Virus record (IMG/VR): IMGVR_UViG_3300017971_000261
Coordinates: 16,268-80,267 of that record
DNA: 64,000 nt
Origin: a virus
Strand: one strand, 5' to 3'
Part shown: positions 15,939 to 53,623 of the stretch, in pieces
How the letters are laid out: each line of letters opens with the position of its first letter
Position numbering within the stretch: position 1 is the first letter of the stretch
Notes under the pieces: model-generated
Databases searched by the model: none
Seen by the model: only the letters and a program-made list of their open reading frames with translations
Told to the model about the DNA's origin: nothing
Translations under genes and position numbers: made by a program

Positions 15939-17039
15939 TTATACACCGTTTTCTTCCATGAGCTTCTTGACATCCACAAGTCCATAACCGGTTTTCTTGT
16001 CTTTTCCGGCCGAAGAAAGATCGATAGCGGTCTTTCTGAGATGCTCACGTATTTCTTCTACGGTATCGACAGGTGTAGCTCCGCCGAGTTTTCTGTGTTT
16101 CGCGATCATGAGTGCTACAACTCCGGCCACCCACGGTGTTGCCATGCTCGTTCCGCTCATAACTCCATATCTGTTCTTTGGCAGGGTGGACAGGACTTTA
16201 ACTCCTGGTGCAACGAAATCTAGATTAGGCCCAGTTTGGCTAAAACTCGCGCGACTCATATCTTTGGATACTGCACCTATGGAAATCGTTTCCTTCAGTC
16301 TGGCTGGATAATCTAGCTTGCCTATGTTCCCCGCATTGCCAGCCGCACATATGACAGGGACATTCTTGCTATATGCACGCTGGACAGCGGCACGCATGGC
16401 CTTATTGTTGTCCGGGCCACCGAGTGACATGCTGATCACATCAGCCCCCTTGGCTAAAGCGTAATCAATACCCGTCGCAATGTCTACGTATCTTCCGCAA
16501 CCGTTGTTGTCTAAGACTTTGATTGTGATTATTTTCGCATCCGGAGCCACTCCGACTACGCCGATGCTATTGTTGTTTGCAGTTACGATACCTGTGCAAT
16601 GTGTACCATGACCATCGCCATCATAAATTTTTGTTCTTATCTTCTTGATCTTCTTATTTACCGCACTAATCCTGCGCTGGTTTAGTCTGATGGATTTTCT
16701 CATTCTTTTCTTAGCACCTTTGCTCTTTGTTCGTCTGATTCGCTTCTTAAGTGTAGAAATTGATGATTTGTATCTTGACCTAGTCTTCAGAAGGTTTTTG
16801 ATACTACTATCTCCGCTGAAATTGTGTTTTGCACCAAATGAATTTTTGAGGTCTTTGTGTTTTGTGTCGCAACCGGTATCCAATATGGCAACAGTTACGC
16901 CCTCTCCTTTGGTTGTAGCCCAAATCTCTGGGATGTTGAATTTCGATATATGGTATCCGAGCCTTTGGGCACTGCTAGTCGAAATATCGTGTTTCACTAG
17001 ATCCGGCGGTAGTTCACATTCTGGTCTTTTTGCTGGCAT
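15939..17039 (-). CDS. Subtilisin-like S8 serine protease with basic insertion
   Basis: VAILDTG, DGHGTHCTG, AAGN, GTSMATP triad; no signal peptide. Confidence 0.92.
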   Translation of the reverse strand: MPAKRPECELPPDLVKHDISTSSAQRLGYHISKFNIPEIWATTKGEGVTVAILDTGCDTKHKDLKNSFGAKHNFSGDSSIKNLLKTRSRYKSSISTLKKRIRRTKSKGAKKRMRKSIRLNQRRISAVNKKIKKIRTKIYDGDGHGTHCTGIVTANNNSIGVVGVAPDAKIITIKVLDNNGCGRYVDIATGIDYALAKGADVISMSLGGPDNNKAMRAAVQRAYSKNVPVICAAGNAGNIGKLDYPARLKETISIGAVSKDMSRASFSQTGPNLDFVAPGVKVLSTLPKNRYGVMSGTSMATPWVAGVVALMIAKHRKLGGATPVDTVEEIREHLRKTAIDLSSAGKDKKTGYGLVDVKKLMEENGV

Positions 17040-28491: not shown

Positions 28492-30375
28492 ATGCCAAAG
28501 CGAACAGTAAATAGATCCTTTTCAGATGTTCTGGGAGAATTACGTTCGGATGTTTCTATGAATCGAACTGGAGGAATCCCAGACATCATTGAATTCACGT
28601 TCAGTCCACATTGGTTGAACGTTCGTGCCTCAGGAATCGCTAATCTTTACCCGGTCCAAACGATTATTCTCAAGTCCTTTTATAGAGGAAGCATTGGCAA
28701 TGAAAATCTCACGCTGACCGAAGAGGAATTAGACAAGCTTAAGAAACTAAAGCACGACAATATCATTGACAAATATCACGACCTTGGAAATTTCAGGGAA
28801 TTGGTGCTTGTGCTCGGTCGTCGTTCTGGCAAGAACCTCATGACATCGATCGTTGCATTGTATGAAGCCATGAAGCTGATCGAGATTCCAGGCGGATCTC
28901 CTTACGAATACTATGGAATTGCTCGCGGTGCTCCTGTTTACGTGCTAGGAATCGCGAGTGCTGCCGAGCAGGCACAGCTTCTGTTCTCCGAGATTCGTAC
29001 ACGCGCTCAATCATCTGATTACTTCAAACGGCATATGGTGCCCGGTGCTATTGGTTCACAGACAATCAGCCTTCTAACACCAGAAGACAGGGAAGTCAAT
29101 AGGCAACTAGATAGGGATGGCTTGCCAGAGGCCAAGACAAAAGGCAGTGTTGTCATCTACAGCGGCCACTCGAACAGCAATTCGCTCGTTGGAAAACGTT
29201 GCATCATGCTGGTCATGGATGAAGTGGCGTCTTACCCACAAACTAGCGGACCATCATCCGGTGATGCCCTATATCAACAGCTCGTGCCCATGACCGCCGA
29301 CTTCAAGCGTAAGGTTGGTCAAACTGAGGACGGAAAAGACCGATATAGGCTTGACTCTAAGATTATTGCTATTTCGTCACCAAGAGGCGAGGAAGGTCTT
29401 CTTTTCCGCCTATATAGCAACGCCAGAAGACGAAAAAGCCGATTGGCCTACAAGTTACCAACTTGGGATGTTAATATGGGTGTAACTAAGGAGATGCTTT
29501 TTGAAGAATATCCAGAGTTACGTCCTGTTGAGTTCAATATGCAGTTTGGTGCTGAGTTCTCAGGAACTTCAGGTGAGAAGTTCATACCAGACCGTTATGT
29601 GGATGATGCAATCGAACTGGGACGCGTAATGGGCGTGCTCAAAAGACCTCTCGGCGAACGGGGTTTGGTTTACTATGCTCATCTGGACCCTGCGTCAAGA
29701 AGCCACAACTTTGCTCTCGTTATTTTACACATTGAGGAATACATCAGAGAAAGGGTGAAAGCTGACGGACGAAAGGCTAAAGAAGTAACAAAGGTATTCG
29801 TTGTCGACCACCTGATGGTGTGGGAGCCGGGGGTCAAAGAATCAATCAACGTCAAGGAGGTTGAGGATTATATTGTTGGACTCAGCAAGAAATTCAAGTT
29901 TGCCACTGTCACTTATGATGCCTGGAATTCACCATCTAGCAAGGATGTTTTGCAGAGGCACGGGATACCTAATAGGGAAACAGCATTCCGAAAACATTAC
30001 AAGATGGGCATTTATGACCAGCTAGAAGACCTTTTAGTCAATAATCAGATAGCTTTACCAGCAGGCTCGCCAAGGTACAAGGAAGCAGAATTGCTTGAAC
30101 TGGAGCTGAAATCCCTGAAGCGGCAATATACTGCTAACGGTTTTCAGATAAAGCCTGACGAAAACGGCCTTGTACAGACAGATGACTTATGTGATGCACT
30201 TGCTGGTGCTGTAGGTTCTGCCATGGGCGGAATCTATGATGGATACCCAAAAGGGGCCGTTGCGTATATGCCTGCTTTCAGATCTGGTGGAGCAAACAGG
30301 CCATGGTTGATCGGAAGAGGCGTATTTAACAACCAAGAGATCAAAACGCTGGGTGGCCGGTTTGGTATGTTCTAG
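28492..30375 (+). CDS. Terminase large subunit
   Basis: Walker A LVLGRRSGKN, Walker B MLVMDE, coupling motif ISSP, RNase H-like YYAHLDPA, YDAWNS, DDLCDALAG. Confidence 0.93.
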   Translation: MPKRTVNRSFSDVLGELRSDVSMNRTGGIPDIIEFTFSPHWLNVRASGIANLYPVQTIILKSFYRGSIGNENLTLTEEELDKLKKLKHDNIIDKYHDLGNFRELVLVLGRRSGKNLMTSIVALYEAMKLIEIPGGSPYEYYGIARGAPVYVLGIASAAEQAQLLFSEIRTRAQSSDYFKRHMVPGAIGSQTISLLTPEDREVNRQLDRDGLPEAKTKGSVVIYSGHSNSNSLVGKRCIMLVMDEVASYPQTSGPSSGDALYQQLVPMTADFKRKVGQTEDGKDRYRLDSKIIAISSPRGEEGLLFRLYSNARRRKSRLAYKLPTWDVNMGVTKEMLFEEYPELRPVEFNMQFGAEFSGTSGEKFIPDRYVDDAIELGRVMGVLKRPLGERGLVYYAHLDPASRSHNFALVILHIEEYIRERVKADGRKAKEVTKVFVVDHLMVWEPGVKESINVKEVEDYIVGLSKKFKFATVTYDAWNSPSSKDVLQRHGIPNRETAFRKHYKMGIYDQLEDLLVNNQIALPAGSPRYKEAELLELELKSLKRQYTANGFQIKPDENGLVQTDDLCDALAGAVGSAMGGIYDGYPKGAVAYMPAFRSGGANRPWLIGRGVFNNQEIKTLGGRFGMF

Positions 30376-38278: not shown

Positions 38279-39013
38279 ATGTTGACTATAATCAGCCACA
38301 AGACCTCATTGGTCCTCAGAAAACAAGCACAAAAAAGCTCTGATGATTTGCTCAGACTTTTAGAGTCGAAGGGCTATACTAGGCACAGACGGCCGAGTCG
38401 GCAAGATGTGTGGAATGCCGTGGGCGAACTTAAACGCGACCAACCTGATATGTATGGACAATATCAAGATGCATCTTGGTCATCCATTGTAGAGAATGTT
38501 TATCAGTATTTCAGAACAGCCTGGTCCGTACCATATGGCATGGAAACCAAACCATATCCGGGACCTGTGACAAAGATCGACAAGGACAACTGGCAGGAAT
38601 ATAGCCCCGAAAATGATGATGTAGATGCCCAATGGGAACAGCAAGTAGAACCTACTGATGAACCTAGAGAGACCCCAATCGCAATCGATCAAAAGGAAGA
38701 TACCTCAGGTGTCATCCCTGAATTCAAAGAAATCCCCTACTACACGGCCGAAGAACTCATCGAAGACGCAGAAAGAGAAAGGGAATTGATTGGATTTTAC
38801 TATACTACAATTGAAGGTACTCCAGTAGGTTACAGAATTGTTGAGCCCCACTATACTTTTGTAGCGGCCACAACGGGAAACCACATTCTTGTTTCCTACG
38901 ATCGTGTCGTCGATGACATAAGGGCTTTCGTGATAGGACCATCGATGTACGGCGGCGTACGGTACAGTGGTGCAAAATTCCAGCCTAAACCCCAGATTAC
39001 GGCTGGAGACTAA
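38279..39013 (+). CDS. Protein with C-terminal WYL-like domain
   Basis: IGFYY...G....RIVEPHY.........LVSYD....DIRAF. Confidence 0.65.
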   Translation: MLTIISHKTSLVLRKQAQKSSDDLLRLLESKGYTRHRRPSRQDVWNAVGELKRDQPDMYGQYQDASWSSIVENVYQYFRTAWSVPYGMETKPYPGPVTKIDKDNWQEYSPENDDVDAQWEQQVEPTDEPRETPIAIDQKEDTSGVIPEFKEIPYYTAEELIEDAERERELIGFYYTTIEGTPVGYRIVEPHYTFVAATTGNHILVSYDRVVDDIRAFVIGPSMYGGVRYSGAKFQPKPQITAGD

Positions 39014-39029
39014 GGAACGGAGAGGCGAT

Positions 39030-40865
39030 ATGGACGACGTGACATCCCATCTGGTCAATCTCTCAAATGCTCTTGACAAAGAGGGAGCAAAAGAAGTTGC
39101 TGACTTGGTCGACAATCTGCTTATCAGCACTGGCTCTCTACAAAAGACCGCTCAATATGTCGGTGTGATTGGTTATGTGCTGCGGCAGAATCGTGCTATG
39201 GCCAATTGTATCCGCAAAAAGCGTCGAGACATCGAAGGACCAATGCAAGATGTCGTACTTGGATGTCTCAAAGAGTATCAAACTTCTACACACTACCAGG
39301 ACAATGAGTGGGTTAGTAAATATGCTCAAACGATCGAGGCCCTACCGTTAGAGTTCGACGATGTCCTGCTCGCCTTCACAAACTCAGTAGCAGAACACAA
39401 TGATATACCTGAACATTTCGACAATGTATGGCGTGTTGCATCAGCATTGTCAGATCTGAGACGTCCGGACCCAGAGATTGACAAGGTTATTGCGTCAGTG
39501 AGAACACTTCATGCTAGCCTGGAGTCCGAGTCGACGACATTGGTCAAACAGGCTAAAAAAAAAATAGCCCAGCAGGGGCCTGAACAAAGAGTGCAAGAAA
39601 GGTGGTGGCGACGCCCCTTTCGCTCGATAACTAACAGGCCTCTTACCGAACGCGGTCGACATCAGCGAAGAACTAACGAGTTCGAGAACCTAGCAGCAAC
39701 AGCAAGACTCATTTCGCAATCTGCCAACGCAGCCATCAATAGCCTCAATCAATACGGACGCCTCATAGAGGGTATAAGATCTGAAGTGTCCGCTATGGCT
39801 GCTCGTCGCAGATATGGGCCGGTCATCCAAGGCATAGTAGATGTTCTGCAAAACCTCGATAGCTACAATGCGTCCTCCAATATGGCCAATATGCAGCGGT
39901 ACCGCAACCATATAGGCCGTCTAACCAGTGCAGAGGGTGCTCAGGCATCTGACTTAGCTCAGAGGGCGATTGATGCTTCGCAACAAATGCTTCAAAATGT
40001 TGGCTCTCAGATGTCGGATGACACATCTGGCACCGAGGGCCGTCTTGATACGCTTCTTGATGAACTCTATCAGCGGGACGCTGGGATCAAGCGTCTTTTG
40101 AGTGCTGTGCCTAACCCACAGATAGAATCAGTTCGACGTTATATCTCAAATCTCAAGAATCAAAGAATTCAATTGTCTAGGGACATGTTCAATCCTCAGC
40201 TTTGGCTGTCTATTGCAAATCAAGCCGATCAAATTGGCGAAGCTGCTACGGCAGAAGCAGAGGCATCGCCCGAACAACCAGCAACACCGCCACGAGGTTC
40301 TTATATGCCAAGCCCAGGTGAAGAGCCGGTCGGCGAACGTGAACGAGAATATCCTACACCCAGAAGACGAGAAGACAGTTCTGAAGGTGGTTCTCTCGAA
40401 CCCGCTGATCACCAAGCTAGAGTGAATTCCATTCTTTCGTCCATGGGAGCTTTAGTCCCACAAACACCCCCTAATCCACCAGAAGAGAGACCCGAGATTG
40501 CCAGAGCGGTTCTACGCGGTCTAACAATTGGGGATGTGAATTTGCTTAGCGTACTTTCTTCTGCCATGACAGGCACTCCCACAGAAGCCATAATTAACGA
40601 TGTACTCAATGAGTTACAGCGAATTGCATCTTCATCTACTACGACAGAGCCTGCCACAGAACCAGAGACAGCACCAACTGATGCAACCATCTCTAGCCGC
40701 CTTGACATGCTTGTAAAACTAGCCAATGCACTAGATCCGATTGATAGAGAGATTGCAGATCTCATTGATTCATACATTTACAAGGCGAAAGAGGCAAAAG
40801 GCGAACTCCCTGAATTGCCTGAATTTTCAGTACTTGTAAAGGAGAGGGAAGCCAAAGCGCAGTAA
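39030..40865 (+). CDS. Putative internal head protein (LxxLxNxLD motif at both termini)
   Basis: GGAGAGG RBS; terminal motifs, several KxAQ sites, internal A10 run. Confidence 0.7.
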   Translation: MDDVTSHLVNLSNALDKEGAKEVADLVDNLLISTGSLQKTAQYVGVIGYVLRQNRAMANCIRKKRRDIEGPMQDVVLGCLKEYQTSTHYQDNEWVSKYAQTIEALPLEFDDVLLAFTNSVAEHNDIPEHFDNVWRVASALSDLRRPDPEIDKVIASVRTLHASLESESTTLVKQAKKKIAQQGPEQRVQERWWRRPFRSITNRPLTERGRHQRRTNEFENLAATARLISQSANAAINSLNQYGRLIEGIRSEVSAMAARRRYGPVIQGIVDVLQNLDSYNASSNMANMQRYRNHIGRLTSAEGAQASDLAQRAIDASQQMLQNVGSQMSDDTSGTEGRLDTLLDELYQRDAGIKRLLSAVPNPQIESVRRYISNLKNQRIQLSRDMFNPQLWLSIANQADQIGEAATAEAEASPEQPATPPRGSYMPSPGEEPVGEREREYPTPRRREDSSEGGSLEPADHQARVNSILSSMGALVPQTPPNPPEERPEIARAVLRGLTIGDVNLLSVLSSAMTGTPTEAIINDVLNELQRIASSSTTTEPATEPETAPTDATISSRLDMLVKLANALDPIDREIADLIDSYIYKAKEAKGELPELPEFSVLVKEREAKAQ

Positions 40866-43288: not shown

Positions 43289-44794
43289 GTGTTCAATCTG
43301 ACCAAGTTTAGCCAAGAAGAAGGCGAGGGGCCTCCCACCGAAACAGAGTTCAGTACAGATGTCGAACAAGAGGCCACAGATATAGGTCAGGAATCCGAGG
43401 AGCCGACAGAACCAACAGAAACCCTAACTGGGACTAGGTTGTTCAATGCACTTCTGGTCGGAAAGCTCCAGGATTACTACGACCCGGGCGTATTCCAGGC
43501 TCTCATGGCGGGCGTCTCCCCTCCGCACAATGTAGACGCGATCGAAGGCGATGTCCGTCGTCTTCCTGAAATCCAGAATACCAATCCAGAATACTTTCAA
43601 TGGGACCAAAACGCAAACCGAGCGTTTCAGCAGGTTAAGGCAATTCTTGATTCGGGTGGCACACCAGTTGTCCCACTTCGAGCAGCCAGCTCTGATGAAA
43701 TCGTCAAGGAAGGCCAAATAACACCAGAACCACAAGAAAACCAAGGACCTATGGCATCAGAGGACGCATTTGTTGCTACGTATTTGGCACCCCTAACAGG
43801 GTATGACCACGAGAAAAATGCGACCATAGAGACTTCAGAATCCGCACGGGCCCAGATACTTGAGAACATTTGTCCAATTGGCGAAGAGGAAGCCAATAGC
43901 GAACTCGAAGAAATACAAAGGCTAGACCCAAAACTGAATTCGCAGGAAGCAGATCAACAAATGCGGAAGTTTTATCAAAGGTGGATTCCGCCTGCACTTA
44001 GGCGAGCCCCCCAAATGGAGCAGACAGTCATGAGCGAAAATACGCCGGAAGGCATCATCAAACATAACCTCTGCAAGTTCTGCTCACAGTCAGACGATTG
44101 TGGGAAGAAAGGCATGAAGAAGGAAGCCTCCGTTGCGTTCTATGGGCAACCTTACTTACTCTATGGCCCAACAGAGAAACGAAAGTGTCCCAAGATGAGC
44201 GGCAAGAATATGGGAGACTTCGTATCGGAATACATCTGCCGACACCACTGTCTAGACGGCATTGTCATTGATGATAACAAAACGGTTTGTGGTGAAGCGC
44301 TATGGCGTGCGAACGTTATGGACAAGTACAGCCGTGACTATGTTGATGCGGATGGCAACTTGGTAGGCGGTTATATCAACAAGCGGTTTGAGGTGAATTA
44401 CAATGTCCCGGAAGACAATAACATTAGACTTAAACCTGGTGAAGTCCGCAAACCGTCAGAACGGTTCTGGAACTACGAAGCCAGGATGCAGCACATGCGG
44501 GAGACAGAGGGGAAAAAGAGGGGATACCGCCCGACCACAGACACCTCCCCGCCTTTTAACTGGTCTAGAGATGTGGAACAAAACAACGTAGAGGCCTCGC
44601 AAGAAGAGAGAGATCGCCGAGAAGAAGCCAGCGGCCATCAGACCGTACAGTACACCAACAGGGATCAGGGTGAGAATCAACCCAAGAAAGCGTTCAATCT
44701 CAACGCATTCAAGGAAGTTACAGCAAGCACAGACGAAACAACGATCATTACGACCAGTGCCGTCGATACGGAAGATCCAAAAAAAAAAGACTAG
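43289..44794 (+). CDS. Putative head protein (FNLTKFSQ N-terminus, Cys-rich domain); ends just after an A10 run
   Basis: 501 aa; YGPTEKRKCP..CRHHC..CGE domain; ends PKKKD-stop. Confidence 0.8.
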   Translation: MFNLTKFSQEEGEGPPTETEFSTDVEQEATDIGQESEEPTEPTETLTGTRLFNALLVGKLQDYYDPGVFQALMAGVSPPHNVDAIEGDVRRLPEIQNTNPEYFQWDQNANRAFQQVKAILDSGGTPVVPLRAASSDEIVKEGQITPEPQENQGPMASEDAFVATYLAPLTGYDHEKNATIETSESARAQILENICPIGEEEANSELEEIQRLDPKLNSQEADQQMRKFYQRWIPPALRRAPQMEQTVMSENTPEGIIKHNLCKFCSQSDDCGKKGMKKEASVAFYGQPYLLYGPTEKRKCPKMSGKNMGDFVSEYICRHHCLDGIVIDDNKTVCGEALWRANVMDKYSRDYVDADGNLVGGYINKRFEVNYNVPEDNNIRLKPGEVRKPSERFWNYEARMQHMRETEGKKRGYRPTTDTSPPFNWSRDVEQNNVEASQEERDRREEASGHQTVQYTNRDQGENQPKKAFNLNAFKEVTASTDETTIITTSAVDTEDPKKKD

Positions 44795-45123
44795 CTAGTA
44801 CCCTCCAGAAGCACGGCCCGACGGAGGCGATTTCGCCGTCGGGCTCTTCTTGTTTCAACCTGAGCAAACAACCACAGGTAGCAGACCCGATTCTAGAGGT
44901 TGACGCCAAAGTTTGTGTCACTCCAGAATTCCTTCAGCAATTCATAGATGAAGATGGCGATTTTGATGAAGAGCAGTTTGATCTCTTTATTGATTCCCTA
45001 AGCGACTCTGAGAAGTCTATAATGGAACAAAACCTGAACAATATCGGTGAACTGCTTCGACTTAAGGCTTTGGTTGATTCAGATCATGAAGAGTCCGCCA
45101 AAGACCTTGAGATGGATGGGTAG
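44788..45123 (+). other. Start-less -1 frame extension (111 codons) of the 43289 gene, candidate programmed frameshift/slippage
   Basis: Frame open from the A10 run to TAG 45121-45123; encodes HGPTE and FNLSKQPQ, echoing motifs in the zero frame. Confidence 0.7.
44807..44850 (+). terminator. GC-rich hairpin (possible terminator/attenuator or slippage-associated pause)
   Basis: GCCCGACGG/CCGTCGGGC 9-bp stem plus AGAAG/CTTCT, followed by TGTTTC. Confidence 0.45.
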
Positions 45124-45143
45124 TCCGCCGGTGAGGTGACCTT

Positions 45144-48100
45144 ATGTCAAAACTAATACTGCCTGATGATCCTGAGTTCCACCAGCCCACAGTGTGGGGT
45201 GATGCAATCGCCAAGGGGCTTACGCCAAAGTCGGCATCCGATAAAATCGTCAAGCAAGCTTCACAAGAAGCAGCCAACCAAGTTCGTTATGCCCAGACCA
45301 TGCTTACGCCAACCCAAGAATGGTGGTACAAGCAAGCCCAAATGGCTAGTCCCGGCATCAACAACATGGTGACGAGCCCCATGTGGTTCTCTCCGATACA
45401 TACACCAATGAATTGGCAAATTGCCTCAAAACGGAGAGAGATATATAATTGGTGCAGGTTCTTTTATACCAATGAAGCTAAAGTTGCTGCTGCTATAGAT
45501 TTCTATTGTTTCGATCCCACCATGCAAGTGCTGCTCGCAGATGGTAGACAAAAAGCTATCTCATCTGTTCAGCCTGGCGATCTCGTACGTTCACATGATG
45601 GCTCGTCTAATGTTGTCAAAAACAAGTTCGTGCGCCGCACCAGAGAAACAATGTTGAGCGTCGCTGTTTCTGGAATATGCGGTGGAAAAACAATGAGGGT
45701 AACAACTGGCCACGAAATACTTACCGAACGTGACGGAGAGATCACGTTCGTTAAAGCTGGCGAACTTCGAAAAGGTGATTATCTTCTTACCCCTATTCTT
45801 TACGATAGTATACCGGACTGCGAGACAATAAATAAAGATCTAGCATGGCTGCTCGGCGTTTACGCTGCCGAAGGTTGTGGAATACCCTATGAAAAAGAAC
45901 TTTCAGATGGCTCGGTCCACAAGAGATTCAAGGGTGTCTATTTTACTATTAGCATTGATGAAAGAGATTTCGCTGATCGTATACGTTCTGCGGTACACCG
46001 AGTATACGGGGAAAATAAAGTAACTATTACAGAAATACCGGAGAAAGGCAAAATAAGGATATCAGCATATGGTTTGCAGATAGCTGACGACCTGATAGGC
46101 CTTTGTCCTGGTATGAGTAGAACAGGAACGAAACGATTTGCACCGGTCGTCATGGGATTTGGCAAAAAAACTCTACTGTCCATCCTGTGCGGCTTCCTGG
46201 ATGGTGATGGATGTTTCAATGCTGCCAACGGTTTCCAGGGTGTTGGTGTTTCCAAAACTCTGTGCGAGCAGATAGCTAATATTTGTGACATACTAGGACT
46301 TGAGTACAGCTTCACAAGCACGCGGATCTCTAAGGGAAATCGTCAGACGTGTTACAACATAAGAATCTCACGTCGAAGTTGTGACCTGTTGTCTGACGCC
46401 TGTTATAAGATTTACGAACATCAAATAGATGAAAGCAAAATACGCAACACACCTTATTTTGCAAAGGGAAAATACATATACCGTAAGATTAGATTTATCA
46501 AAGAGTACGAATATGAAGGAAATGTTTATGATCTTGAAATAGAAAACTCCCATTCCTATGTTGTAAACAGGGTTGCTGTACACAACAGCGGCTTTCCGCT
46601 TAACGGGTTTGATCTGGCCTGCAAAGACAATAACGTTCTCAAGTTTTTCGAGCATAAGATAGTAAGAAAGCTTGATCTACTCAATATTCTAAGGCAAGTT
46701 GCGTCCGAGTACTATATGCTAGGTGATGTCTTTGTCCACACCGACATCGAATGTCCGCACTGTGGTGGTACGGCCAGAGACCCGAAGACCGGACGCATGT
46801 GCAATCACCCGGACGGGATGATCAGCAAGCTTCGGATACTGAATCCGGACTGGATCGAGGTGCACCAGCCGGTCATATCTGATGAGCCGTACATCGTACT
46901 CATACCGGACGAAGAACTCACTACGATTGTGATGCGACGTCGACCGAGACAGATCTATGATAGCTTGCCGGACTACATCAAACAGTACGTCGCGGCCCAC
47001 CAGCCGATCCCGCTCTCGAACCGCGTAACGTCACACCTTAAGCATATGCCCGTTCCATACGGAACCTACGGAACAAGCCTCATTCGTAGGCTTTTCCAGA
47101 CGTTGGCATACAAGACAAAAATCATGACTGCGAACTGGATTGTCGCAGAGAGACTAATCGTTCCGGTACGTATCGTCAAGATCGGTAGCGACCAGCGTCC
47201 AGCATCGTCTGCCGACATCTCTGATGTCCAAATGCAGTTAGCTGCAACGGCTAATGATCCTAATCTGACCATAGTGACCCACCACAATTTCGAACTCGAA
47301 TGGTATGGTGCCTGTTTTCCGCAAACCAATGATATACAAGTACTTACGCCAGAAGGATGGAAAACATACGAAGAAATCAATGACGATGATCTTGTCGGAA
47401 CATTTAACAAGGAATCTGGTATTCTAGAGTTCCAGCAATTCACACAAAGACATGAATACGAATATGATTCATCACTATACGGGCCGCTTTATTCATTTGG
47501 TGATAAATTGATGGATATACCAGTTACGCCGAACCACCGCATGCTAGTAAGGAAAGGAAGATGGACTGATCGCTATGACACTGTAATGTCTCAGGATGTA
47601 AAAAGACACCATAAAATCCCGTGCCGAGTTGGCTGGAATGGCAAACTTCCCCCATCTTTGCCTTATCGGTCTTGCTCGGCTTTGTCGAATATGTCGCTCC
47701 ATGATTTCTTGCGTTTTGCTGGTTACTATGTCTCTGAGGGGCACGTACAAAAGTGGTTCAAGAGCAGGGTATCGACTGAAAAGGTTCCACAATCTATAGG
47801 AATAAGCCAGAATGTTGACCAGCCAGCCTACGAAAAGATAAAGTCGCTTATGTACGGTATCTCAGATCGTGCGTATATACACAAAGACGAGCGTCGTGAG
47901 GTAGCAACCCATACAGTAAAAATTTCCGATGTTCGTTTGGCTGATTATATGGTACAAGAGTTTGGTGCCGGGTCTTCAGAAAAACTGGTGCCACGTTGGA
48001 TTCTGGATCTGCCTAAAGCTGAACTCCGTATTTTCCTTAATGCAGCTATGGAAGGAGACGGGCAGACAAGAGAAATGAAAACCGGCCGCAGATTTCGATA

Positions 48101-53000: not shown

Positions 53001-53623
53001 CCGCTTTCGACAAGGCTATGGAAACCCTTAGGGCAGATAGAAACTTCGTTGGTTTCTTGCCGCCGATGGACTGTGTCATAGAAGACGAAACTTTAGGAAG
53101 CCATGAGGTACTTAATAGTGGCGTTCTGAATACGTCGCTTGCAGAGTCGTCATACGAAGCAGATTCACAGCTTTCCAACCTATTGCCGCAGGAGAAGACT
53201 GTTGAGGTCGGAGATGATGACCAGAGCCAGGCACCATTCATAGCAATCCAAGACACCATGGCAGGTGTTGGTCTCGCTGCTATGCCGGAACAAGAAGATC
53301 AACCCGCACAACAACCTCAGCCTGGCAGATTCAATATGGAAGAGTATATGCGTCAGCAAGAACCAACACAGATACCCGGCTATGACCCAGGAACTTGGGG
53401 AACTATACCGGAAGGTGCAGAAGAGACGCAGACAGAAGAAGATATAGATGAGGAAGAAGAAAGAAGACGAAGAGAAAACCAAGCTCCAGGCACTGAGACC
53501 GAATATCTGGCAGAAAAGTCGCTTCAGGAGCTTATACGTCTAGCAGACGCCTATGATAAGAAAAACCTCAAAAGCGTCGCTGACAAGATAGACCGCGTTA
53601 TAATGGGTATCATAAATGCCTGA
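50003..53623 (+). CDS. Large putative internal virion protein (1206 aa)
   Basis: N-terminal MAFNLSK, C-terminal LIRLADAYD..VADKID motif; lies between portal and protease. Confidence 0.65.
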   Translation: MAFNLSKNSSDKIRIEPLEKQSALSKSAMSFNTGQKNLLNSQDNTTWAWAGDLSQRIQAVQQDIERRFAAYFHVYARNTANRRKAMSFDPGVYKEVAAQEQEEAERGTDVEIETKEETESGGPLAHICFRLNYIRDIMPSQNSDSWDRANSAVEMLNTYMAARGAPFDEFMNDVMSNNVPLVYYFDNLEASGSRGQTSPETRADYVAAERERSQRGMHRMPGGEPVLGSEDYFAYHSEFLDKFGKIPTTYNQKEGLRTKYKSREEEWQRPTLHEPRKAYRVFQPGYLNAAIDHAISQGSKLDQEALEKEINGFLQRDLLAKKGFDIKMFPAGVLDMKSVPKELQNQAEAQIVFYKKTVQRIIEDFNRRSGQKAAAKSEENGLTAFESQCLLYNLSSPRGFFIIPGFKHRIRANGFDKLRGNYRKKMPPGSPMPIMPLLRSVPAPGGRDMAVPNRDDGNGGRRQLTKNWISKDGTGLASLMSRYGSTCDAWFKMLLDEGFHAEMKRQITGRGNDFQPAQIILDTINCVLRNRTNADALLDALQAYPTYEEFEQKHLRKGFVSAAQLTNDLRQSGGRDKLPVRPKGMAPEGGDAYEELRAITPDKATHQFDKAVELASTIGDAIRDVVITQRASAGKTNQETIQALEAEKEELLSDVNLSMQYKANVLRTKNERIYALQMADRLGNAEAMNVFRTRLYDIAKYLYSLYENIQSAGYDDDIRRWNKLTDALLSLSHADRSATAGMTKPEKKKAAWTPVQTTSKTDEETMMRKDDFELLKSYGYQTAKMMDFLSALMIRSCRSGPPGAELHGGDYSSTIGKSEKGQIYFGVKYAYRLHGYKPYVQGELQTGPFEGQAVQQMNRDVTKSIGSKVIENRRLRSTPEMALLPATRHLREDQEQQGKGDVRQERPFSSGDLERLQTVTGQDWPRGCQTVVENITYMVGGTTSPSQFLNTRMESASHRDVLDYFYRTYGDVMSDLGMFIDPLAANLERLEVATRAAISAAFDKAMETLRADRNFVGFLPPMDCVIEDETLGSHEVLNSGVLNTSLAESSYEADSQLSNLLPQEKTVEVGDDDQSQAPFIAIQDTMAGVGLAAMPEQEDQPAQQPQPGRFNMEEYMRQQEPTQIPGYDPGTWGTIPEGAEETQTEEDIDEEEERRRRENQAPGTETEYLAEKSLQELIRLADAYDKKNLKSVADKIDRVIMGIINA

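Follow-up and report, generated by a model that had tools for sequence, protein, structure and literature searches.

What occupies the 349-nucleotide (nt) interval that precedes a portal-like gene in an uncultured virus genome? The interval lies in a 64,000-nt stretch of the IMG/VR virus record IMGVR_UViG_3300017971_000261 (positions 16,268 to 80,267 of the record; hereafter the window), and it is conspicuous because the plus-strand genes are close-packed from ~26 kb to 64 kb. Directly upstream of it, the open reading frame (ORF) P0001 runs through ten consecutive adenines (A10) and stops one codon later. A first-pass annotation, made from the letters alone, had proposed that a change of frame at this run opens a hidden C-terminal extension in the -1 frame. 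We find that the A10 run with its open -1 frame is neither a product of chance nor a sequencing error, that the extension is under purifying selection, and that related phage loci keep the arrangement across deep branches. The run is probably a programmed frame switch that acts by RNA-polymerase slippage.

The frame geometry given in the first-pass annotation is borne out by the sequence. The zero frame ends with 44777 CCA AAA AAA AAA GAC TAG 44794. Entered at 44788, the -1 frame stays open for 111 codons (P0002, RLASTLQKHGPTEA...ESAKDLEMDG) up to a TAG at 45121–45123, and the ATG of the portal-like ORF follows at 45144 after a gap of 20 nt. The earliest ATG, GTG or TTG in the -1 frame of the window is the ATG at 45022, from which only 33 amino acids (aa) would be read; it sits within the conserved domain described below and splits it in half. 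The +1 frame meets a stop after two codons. Read-through of the zero-frame TAG was also considered and rejected, with a TGA met ~20 codons further on. A search of positions 44600–45300 against Rfam matched no family.

The length of the run holds in independent assemblies. Logan contigs, which are assembled sequences and not raw reads, were available from three runs of three studies, one or two of which may derive from the source sample; all cover the run as A10 with no indel, which disposes of the A11 homopolymer error that the first-pass annotation had named as one way to be wrong, although rare variants would be hidden in contigs. Two of these contigs span the whole stretch, and the third is a 151-nt piece over 44751–44901. 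Among RNA runs, none was listed as containing the stretch. The extension in turn behaves as coding sequence. A hidden Markov model (HMM) built from the extensions of other loci matched the -1 frame of the window with 68.8 bits (E = 3e-23), against 4.9 bits for the best of 200 shuffles and scores below 0 for the other five frames of the window. Purifying selection is seen in two close pairs of loci, in which third codon positions of the extension frame account for 41 of 66 nucleotide differences and codon changes are synonymous only in 38 cases and non-synonymous in 17.

Searches of metagenome protein collections returned 91 homologs of P0001 (E<=1e-3). Seventy-three homologous loci were retrieved (identified by L numbers); a pure A-run stands at the junction in 42 distinct ones. 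The run is uninterrupted A in all 42, ranges from 9 to 12 nt and is most often 10. The extension lies in the -1 frame in 36 of these loci (A10, n = 33; A11, n = 2; A12, n = 1), in the +1 frame in three (A10, L030 and L049; A9, L034), and in frame with the run retained in another three (A11, L004; A10, L012 and L013). The called homolog proteins nearly all end in KKK plus one residue (T, S, R, I, K or N), the codon of which begins with A, and their tails are otherwise unrelated. The zero-frame stop starts 0–5 nt past the run in 36 of 39 loci, and throughout the family both non-productive frames are shut within a few codons of the run. The A-run is kept at the nucleotide level beyond the need of the protein: AAG makes up 26% of the lysine codons elsewhere in these genes, yet never interrupts or ends the run. 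Extensions are 63–281 codons long, with linkers of 10–151 codons in the relatives, and every one terminates in a conserved domain of ~70 residues with the tail E-[ST]-A-K-D-L-A-M-[ED]-G. The portal gene starts 1–35 nt beyond the extension stop in at least 35 related loci. The relatives thus keep the A-run, the KKK-stop ending and the open, conserved downstream frame, the comparison to which the first-pass annotation had pointed.

In the main-ORF tree, the loci with a run group, apart from L012 with its long branch, in a single clade of 41 members (support of 98 in the Shimodaira–Hasegawa-like approximate likelihood ratio test), with end branches mostly of 0.1–1.3 changes per site. Throughout the clade the prevailing state is A10 with a -1 extension, and the other states are scattered single tips among A10/-1 relatives. 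The window belongs to one of the deepest-branching lineages, adjoining L009. More distant homologs (L056–L073) have neither the run nor the C-terminal motif. Metagenomes of sediment, seawater, groundwater and saline lakes contain members of the clade, on contigs that reach 580 kb. Neither the ORF nor the extension had a match among 50,697 cultured-phage records, in near searches or at the protein level, and the nearest cultured-phage terminase is ~25% identical. A scan of IMG/VR with the single protein likewise gave no match, whereas an alignment-based scan did recover homologs.

Features around the A10 run of the window (positions counted from the first letter of the window)
Feature	Positions	Strand	Remarks
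Zero-frame ORF P0001, short isoform, 501 aa	43289–44794	+	GTG start (GTG-FNLTK); ends PKKKD-TAG
A10 run, putative frame-switch site	44779–44788	+	read from sequence
Zero-frame stop TAG, one codon past A10	44792–44794	+	
Linker of the -1 frame extension, residues 1–44, non-conserved, predicted disordered	44788–44919	+	FNLSK at 44854–44868
C-terminal domain of the extension, residues 45–111, four predicted helices, plus stop	44920–45123	+	alignment, HMM, model
Portal-like gene, 1476 aa	45144–49574	+	Pfam/PHROGs matches
Hairpin, core 44815-24/44836-45 (10 bp), outer part 44807-11/44846-50 (5 bp), plus U-rich stretch	44807–44856	+	

Variation on this layout was seen at several loci. L030 (2570–2612) and L049 (5500–5542) are not sister loci and come from different samples; in both, the zero frame runs 11 codons past A10 into similar tails (..QPFRR and ..EPFRR) and the long extension lies in the +1 frame, so that the layout recurs in separate branches. 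In the short contig L070 (1–776), a relative of L012, the main frame is broken behind STKKK, at a point with no A-run of 7 or more; reading resumes in the -1 frame and reaches the same C-terminal motif after 172 codons. This could be a second frame break elsewhere or an assembly error. The extensions of L010, L052, L042, L044 and L054 carry a Cys-rich, zinc-ribbon-like insert (CxxC...CxxC) between linker and C-terminal domain, which the extension of the window does not have.

Judged by its stop and start codons, the extension is translated by entry at the run and can be reached only via the run. A TAA that abuts the run (typically TCT-A10), formed by the preceding base and the first two As of the run itself, shuts the extension frame in 24 of 30 aligned loci; the 1,845 linker codons that follow the run across the 30 loci contain no stop. 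Ten of the 30 have no ATG, GTG or TTG ahead of the conserved domain, and 18 lack an ATG as well as any start that follows a Shine-Dalgarno (SD)-like motif. A library of 1.84 billion representative proteins contains the domain in 99 entries, invariably at the C-terminus. About 92 of these 99 representatives are orphan ORF calls of 33–294 aa, many of which begin inside the domain, and only four or five are long fused proteins. Of the six long forms, five retain KKK at the junction.

The run, the open frame, the selection on the extension and the deep conservation of the arrangement are observed directly; the mechanism that we propose for them is as follows. Standard decoding of A10 mRNA would give the 501-aa protein ending in PKKKD. 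RNA polymerase would stutter on A10 and add one untemplated A in a fraction of the transcripts, and translation of such A11 transcripts (or a -1 shift) would join ...DPKKK to RLAST.... The long isoform, most likely of ~611 aa, would thereby carry the extension with its disordered linker, a further FNLxK motif and a 67-residue helical domain, and would end just before the portal gene. The short form would be the major product, and the shift would take place at the level of RNA polymerase, not of the ribosome. As a reading of this locus, recoding into short and long isoforms, as put forward in the first-pass annotation, is the best one available; the accompanying term head protein is inferred from gene position and a shared N-terminal tag.

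The balance of the sequence evidence leans toward polymerase slippage over -1 ribosomal frameshifting. The only conserved nucleic-acid feature is an uninterrupted A-run of at least 9. A run of this length is about that of the RNA–DNA hybrid and longer than the heptamer needed for a ribosomal shift. The three opposite-shift loci (L030, L049 and L034) sit in three separate branches, and the run or KKK survives in six fused forms, which fits a stutter that makes insertions as well as deletions. In reporter work, slippage by E. coli RNA polymerase became detectable only from 8 As upward, and on poly(A) T7 RNA polymerase made insertions in preference to deletions (PMC6260861); the latter bias matches the prevailing need for one extra A at these loci.

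The strongest competitor is -1 ribosomal frameshifting, in which tRNA-Lys slips back one base at A_AAA_AAA on a uniform A10 mRNA. We regard it as possible but distinctly less probable than polymerase slippage. The heptamer is present in phase, the 36 loci with a -1 extension need exactly this shift, and a stop so close behind the run (0–5 nt in the 36 of 39 loci given above) could pause ribosomes near the site; strong downstream hairpins are found in the window, L009 and L036. Downstream structure is not conserved, however: over the 70 nt that follow the run the mean z is -0.57, against -0.53 in control windows (p = 0.87), many loci are essentially unstructured, and the hairpin of the window begins 18–26 nt past the run, not 5–9 nt. 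An SD-like 4-mer within 18 nt upstream of the run is rarer (2 of 39 loci) than in control windows (a fraction of 0.18). The run has never shrunk to a heptamer and never ends in AAG, and the three loci with the extension in the +1 frame are out of reach of a -1 shift.

Several points weigh against slippage by RNA polymerase. The A_AAA_AAA sequence is also a ribosomal slip site, and -1 frameshifting could contribute or even dominate; a run of ten As holds an in-phase heptamer in every phase. The opposite-shift and fused loci could reflect faulty assembly or recent mutation, the tract being mutable. A hairpin upstream of the run boosts slippage in some insertion sequence (IS) elements, but only a weak trend toward one was found here (Kolmogorov–Smirnov p = 0.024 with 24-nt windows and 0.42 with 32-nt windows); a hairpin abutting the run is clear in ~6–8 of 39 loci (L042, L008, L027, L032, L054 and L038) and absent in the window. 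No T7-like RNA polymerase was matched in a search of the 80-kb record, with the control genomes likewise unmatched. Slippage of E. coli polymerase on A-runs was low in a reporter study (PMC6260861).

A switch at the DNA level, in which the tract mutates between A10 and A11 at replication so that both forms exist across the phage population and not in each cell, is very improbable. In its favour, loci with the extension in frame and the run retained (L004 with A11, L012 and L013 with A10) occur as single tips among -1 relatives, and run lengths of 9, 11 and 12 are seen as well. However, 39 of 42 loci, spread over deep branches, are out of frame while the extension is under purifying selection, which requires regular expression from out-of-frame genomes; for the phage of the window, the contigs of all three studies have A10, behind which a small A11 subpopulation could hide.

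Hardly credible is a sequencing or assembly error, a decaying pseudogene or an independent small gene in the gap: homopolymers are error-prone on some platforms and the ATG at 45022 could start a 33-aa peptide, but the same out-of-frame A10 recurs in 33 distinct loci from many samples besides the three studies here, that ATG lies inside the domain, database ORFs that begin inside the domain are the typical mis-annotation of recoded genes, and a small gene is, on the pattern of codons, excluded as a general explanation because 10 of 30 loci lack a start codon before the domain and the domain is always C-terminal.

Among characterised systems, Thermus thermophilus dnaX (tau/gamma) would be the closest functional counterpart, though with a polarity like that in Shigella flexneri mxiE and spa13, and the biological role would parallel that of lambda G/GT. 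Slippage in Thermus dnaX occurs on A9 (PMC1088944, PMC5009743); as here, the site is a pure A-run of 9–10 in the sense strand in the 3' part of the gene, stops in the non-productive frames lie close to the run (PMC1088944), and no elaborate stimulator is needed. The polarity differs, since the templated frame of Thermus dnaX gives the long product and the slipped frame the short one, which is reversed in 39 of the 42 loci; only the three fused variants (e.g. L004) resemble dnaX in this respect. The protein families are unrelated, and the mRNA heterogeneity that was demonstrated for dnaX is a prediction for the present site.

In mxiE and spa13, an untemplated base at a homopolymer joins overlapping frames and the minority product is the longer one, as we propose here; slippage in spa13 accounts for 25–30% of the product and adds a 112-aa extension (PMC1088944, PMC5009743). 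In contrast to the present loci, the run of mxiE consists of Us in the mRNA, and mxiE and spa13 are cellular or plasmid secretion-system genes without homology to this phage structural module. The -1 ribosomal frameshift of lambda G/GT (PMC5009743) is alike in being a conserved recoding event in phage morphogenesis that gives, in a fixed ratio, a major short product and a minor long one with an extra domain. It differs in lying between the tail tube and tape measure genes and not directly before the portal, in using a G_GGA_AAG-type heptamer read by the ribosome, and in having neither an A10 run nor homology. Since the gene position differs, the family described here is not a member of the tail chaperones. 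The first-pass annotation had likewise placed its recoding site outside the tail-chaperone location, and the gene indeed lies directly upstream of the portal in the window and at least 35 relatives. The -1 frameshifting sites of E. coli dnaX and IS elements (A_AAA_AAG; PMC5009743) share a slippery sequence of lysine codons, but need an upstream SD-like element and a downstream stem-loop, neither of which is conserved here.

P0001 has a strongly conserved core (~residues 245–470) with invariant Cys300, Cys317, Cys321 and Cys334. Pfam, PHROGs and PDB sequence-profile searches gave no match for P0001 or the extension, and a protein-atlas look-up with the P0001 core gave none either. The AlphaFold model of P0001 was poor (mean predicted local distance difference test score, pLDDT, of 55) and was left unused for fold search. 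The last 67 residues of the extension are predicted to form a small four-helix unit (pLDDT 76–90), for which a fold search in PDB and BFVD returned nothing at E<=0.001. The gene lies in the head module, together with a terminase at 28492, the portal at 45144 and a protease-like ORF at 53616, and this position, together with the shared N-terminal tag, suggests a head protein. At a guess by analogy with other phage proteins that exist in two isoforms, the minor long form might dock the bulk short form to another part of the head, such as the portal.

FNLxK is a family-wide motif that stands at the N-terminus (MFNLxK or M(x)FNLxK), before the run and in many extensions. In the window, three head-module proteins (ORFs 30462, 43289 and 50003) share the N-terminal tag M(x)FN[LF]xK, and FNLxK is found again at 44693–44707, before the A-run, and in the linker; domain borders are another place where it recurs in the family. 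It may serve in capsid targeting or as a prohead-protease site. The first-pass annotation had taken two short echoes of the zero-frame protein in the extension as signs of coding: FNLSK, which is a genuine echo, and HGPTE/YGPTE, which lies in the non-conserved linker, is probably a coincidence and was rejected as a sign of coding.

The downstream hairpin, which had also been noted before, is real and lies farther from the run than the usual 5–9 nt. It is followed by UGUUUC running into Phe-Asn codons, and the 131-nt stretch as a whole folds no better than shuffles (z = -0.94). In the sister locus L009, a hairpin of different sequence (z = -4.5) plus UUUUU occupies the same place, just before the Phe-Asn-Leu codons of the linker, whereas most relatives have nothing at this position and there is no family-wide conservation. 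As a frameshift stimulator the hairpin was rejected, its spacing being too long and the structure not conserved. The hairpins of the window and L009 look like intrinsic terminators inside the non-conserved linker and, as a conjecture, might attenuate transcription into the portal gene in this sub-lineage.

A wider scheme that would combine these elements is unlikely as a whole. In it, A10 would be a two-way polymerase stutter switch that sets the ratio of a head protein to its docking form, and would work together with a protease-cut FNLxK tag in the head-assembly or cargo-loading scheme of a large uncultured clade of big phages, with terminator control in a sub-lineage. The prohead protease would cut the tag, which begins at least three head-module proteins and also stands at domain borders; the bulk form would be head-internal and the minor form would carry a portal- or shell-docking domain; the terminator within the extension would be a second layer of control over both the long form and the portal.

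We found no description of this gene family or site in the literature, including a 2016 recoding review. The mechanism is of a known kind, and what is new is the gene family and its near-universal mis-annotation: gene callers misread the family, calling the main gene almost always as ending in KKK-x, and once the slip site is recognised, a conserved long isoform would be regained for a clade of uncultured phages that is widespread. The few programmed switches listed outside tail-chaperone genes gain with this site an A10 that is deeply conserved and free of stimulators. The site also offers a clean natural test case for telling polymerase slippage from ribosomal slippage, and it singles out the gene ahead of the portal for study as a probable morphogenesis component with two isoforms.

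Two further observations concern the surroundings of the site. The portal-like ORF matches intein splicing/Hint, LAGLIDADG and Hom_end domains (Pfam, PHROGs) and has a DUF559/Vsr-like endonuclease domain at its C-terminus. The only other plus-strand A/T run of at least 8 in the window is also exactly A10 (39555–39564) and lies in frame inside ORF 38967–40865 (..LVKQAKKKIAQQ..). One alternative frame has a TAG directly after this run and the other stops eight codons on, so slippage there would be expected to yield a truncated form; the corresponding regions of L053 and L022, which are homologous, do not contain the run.

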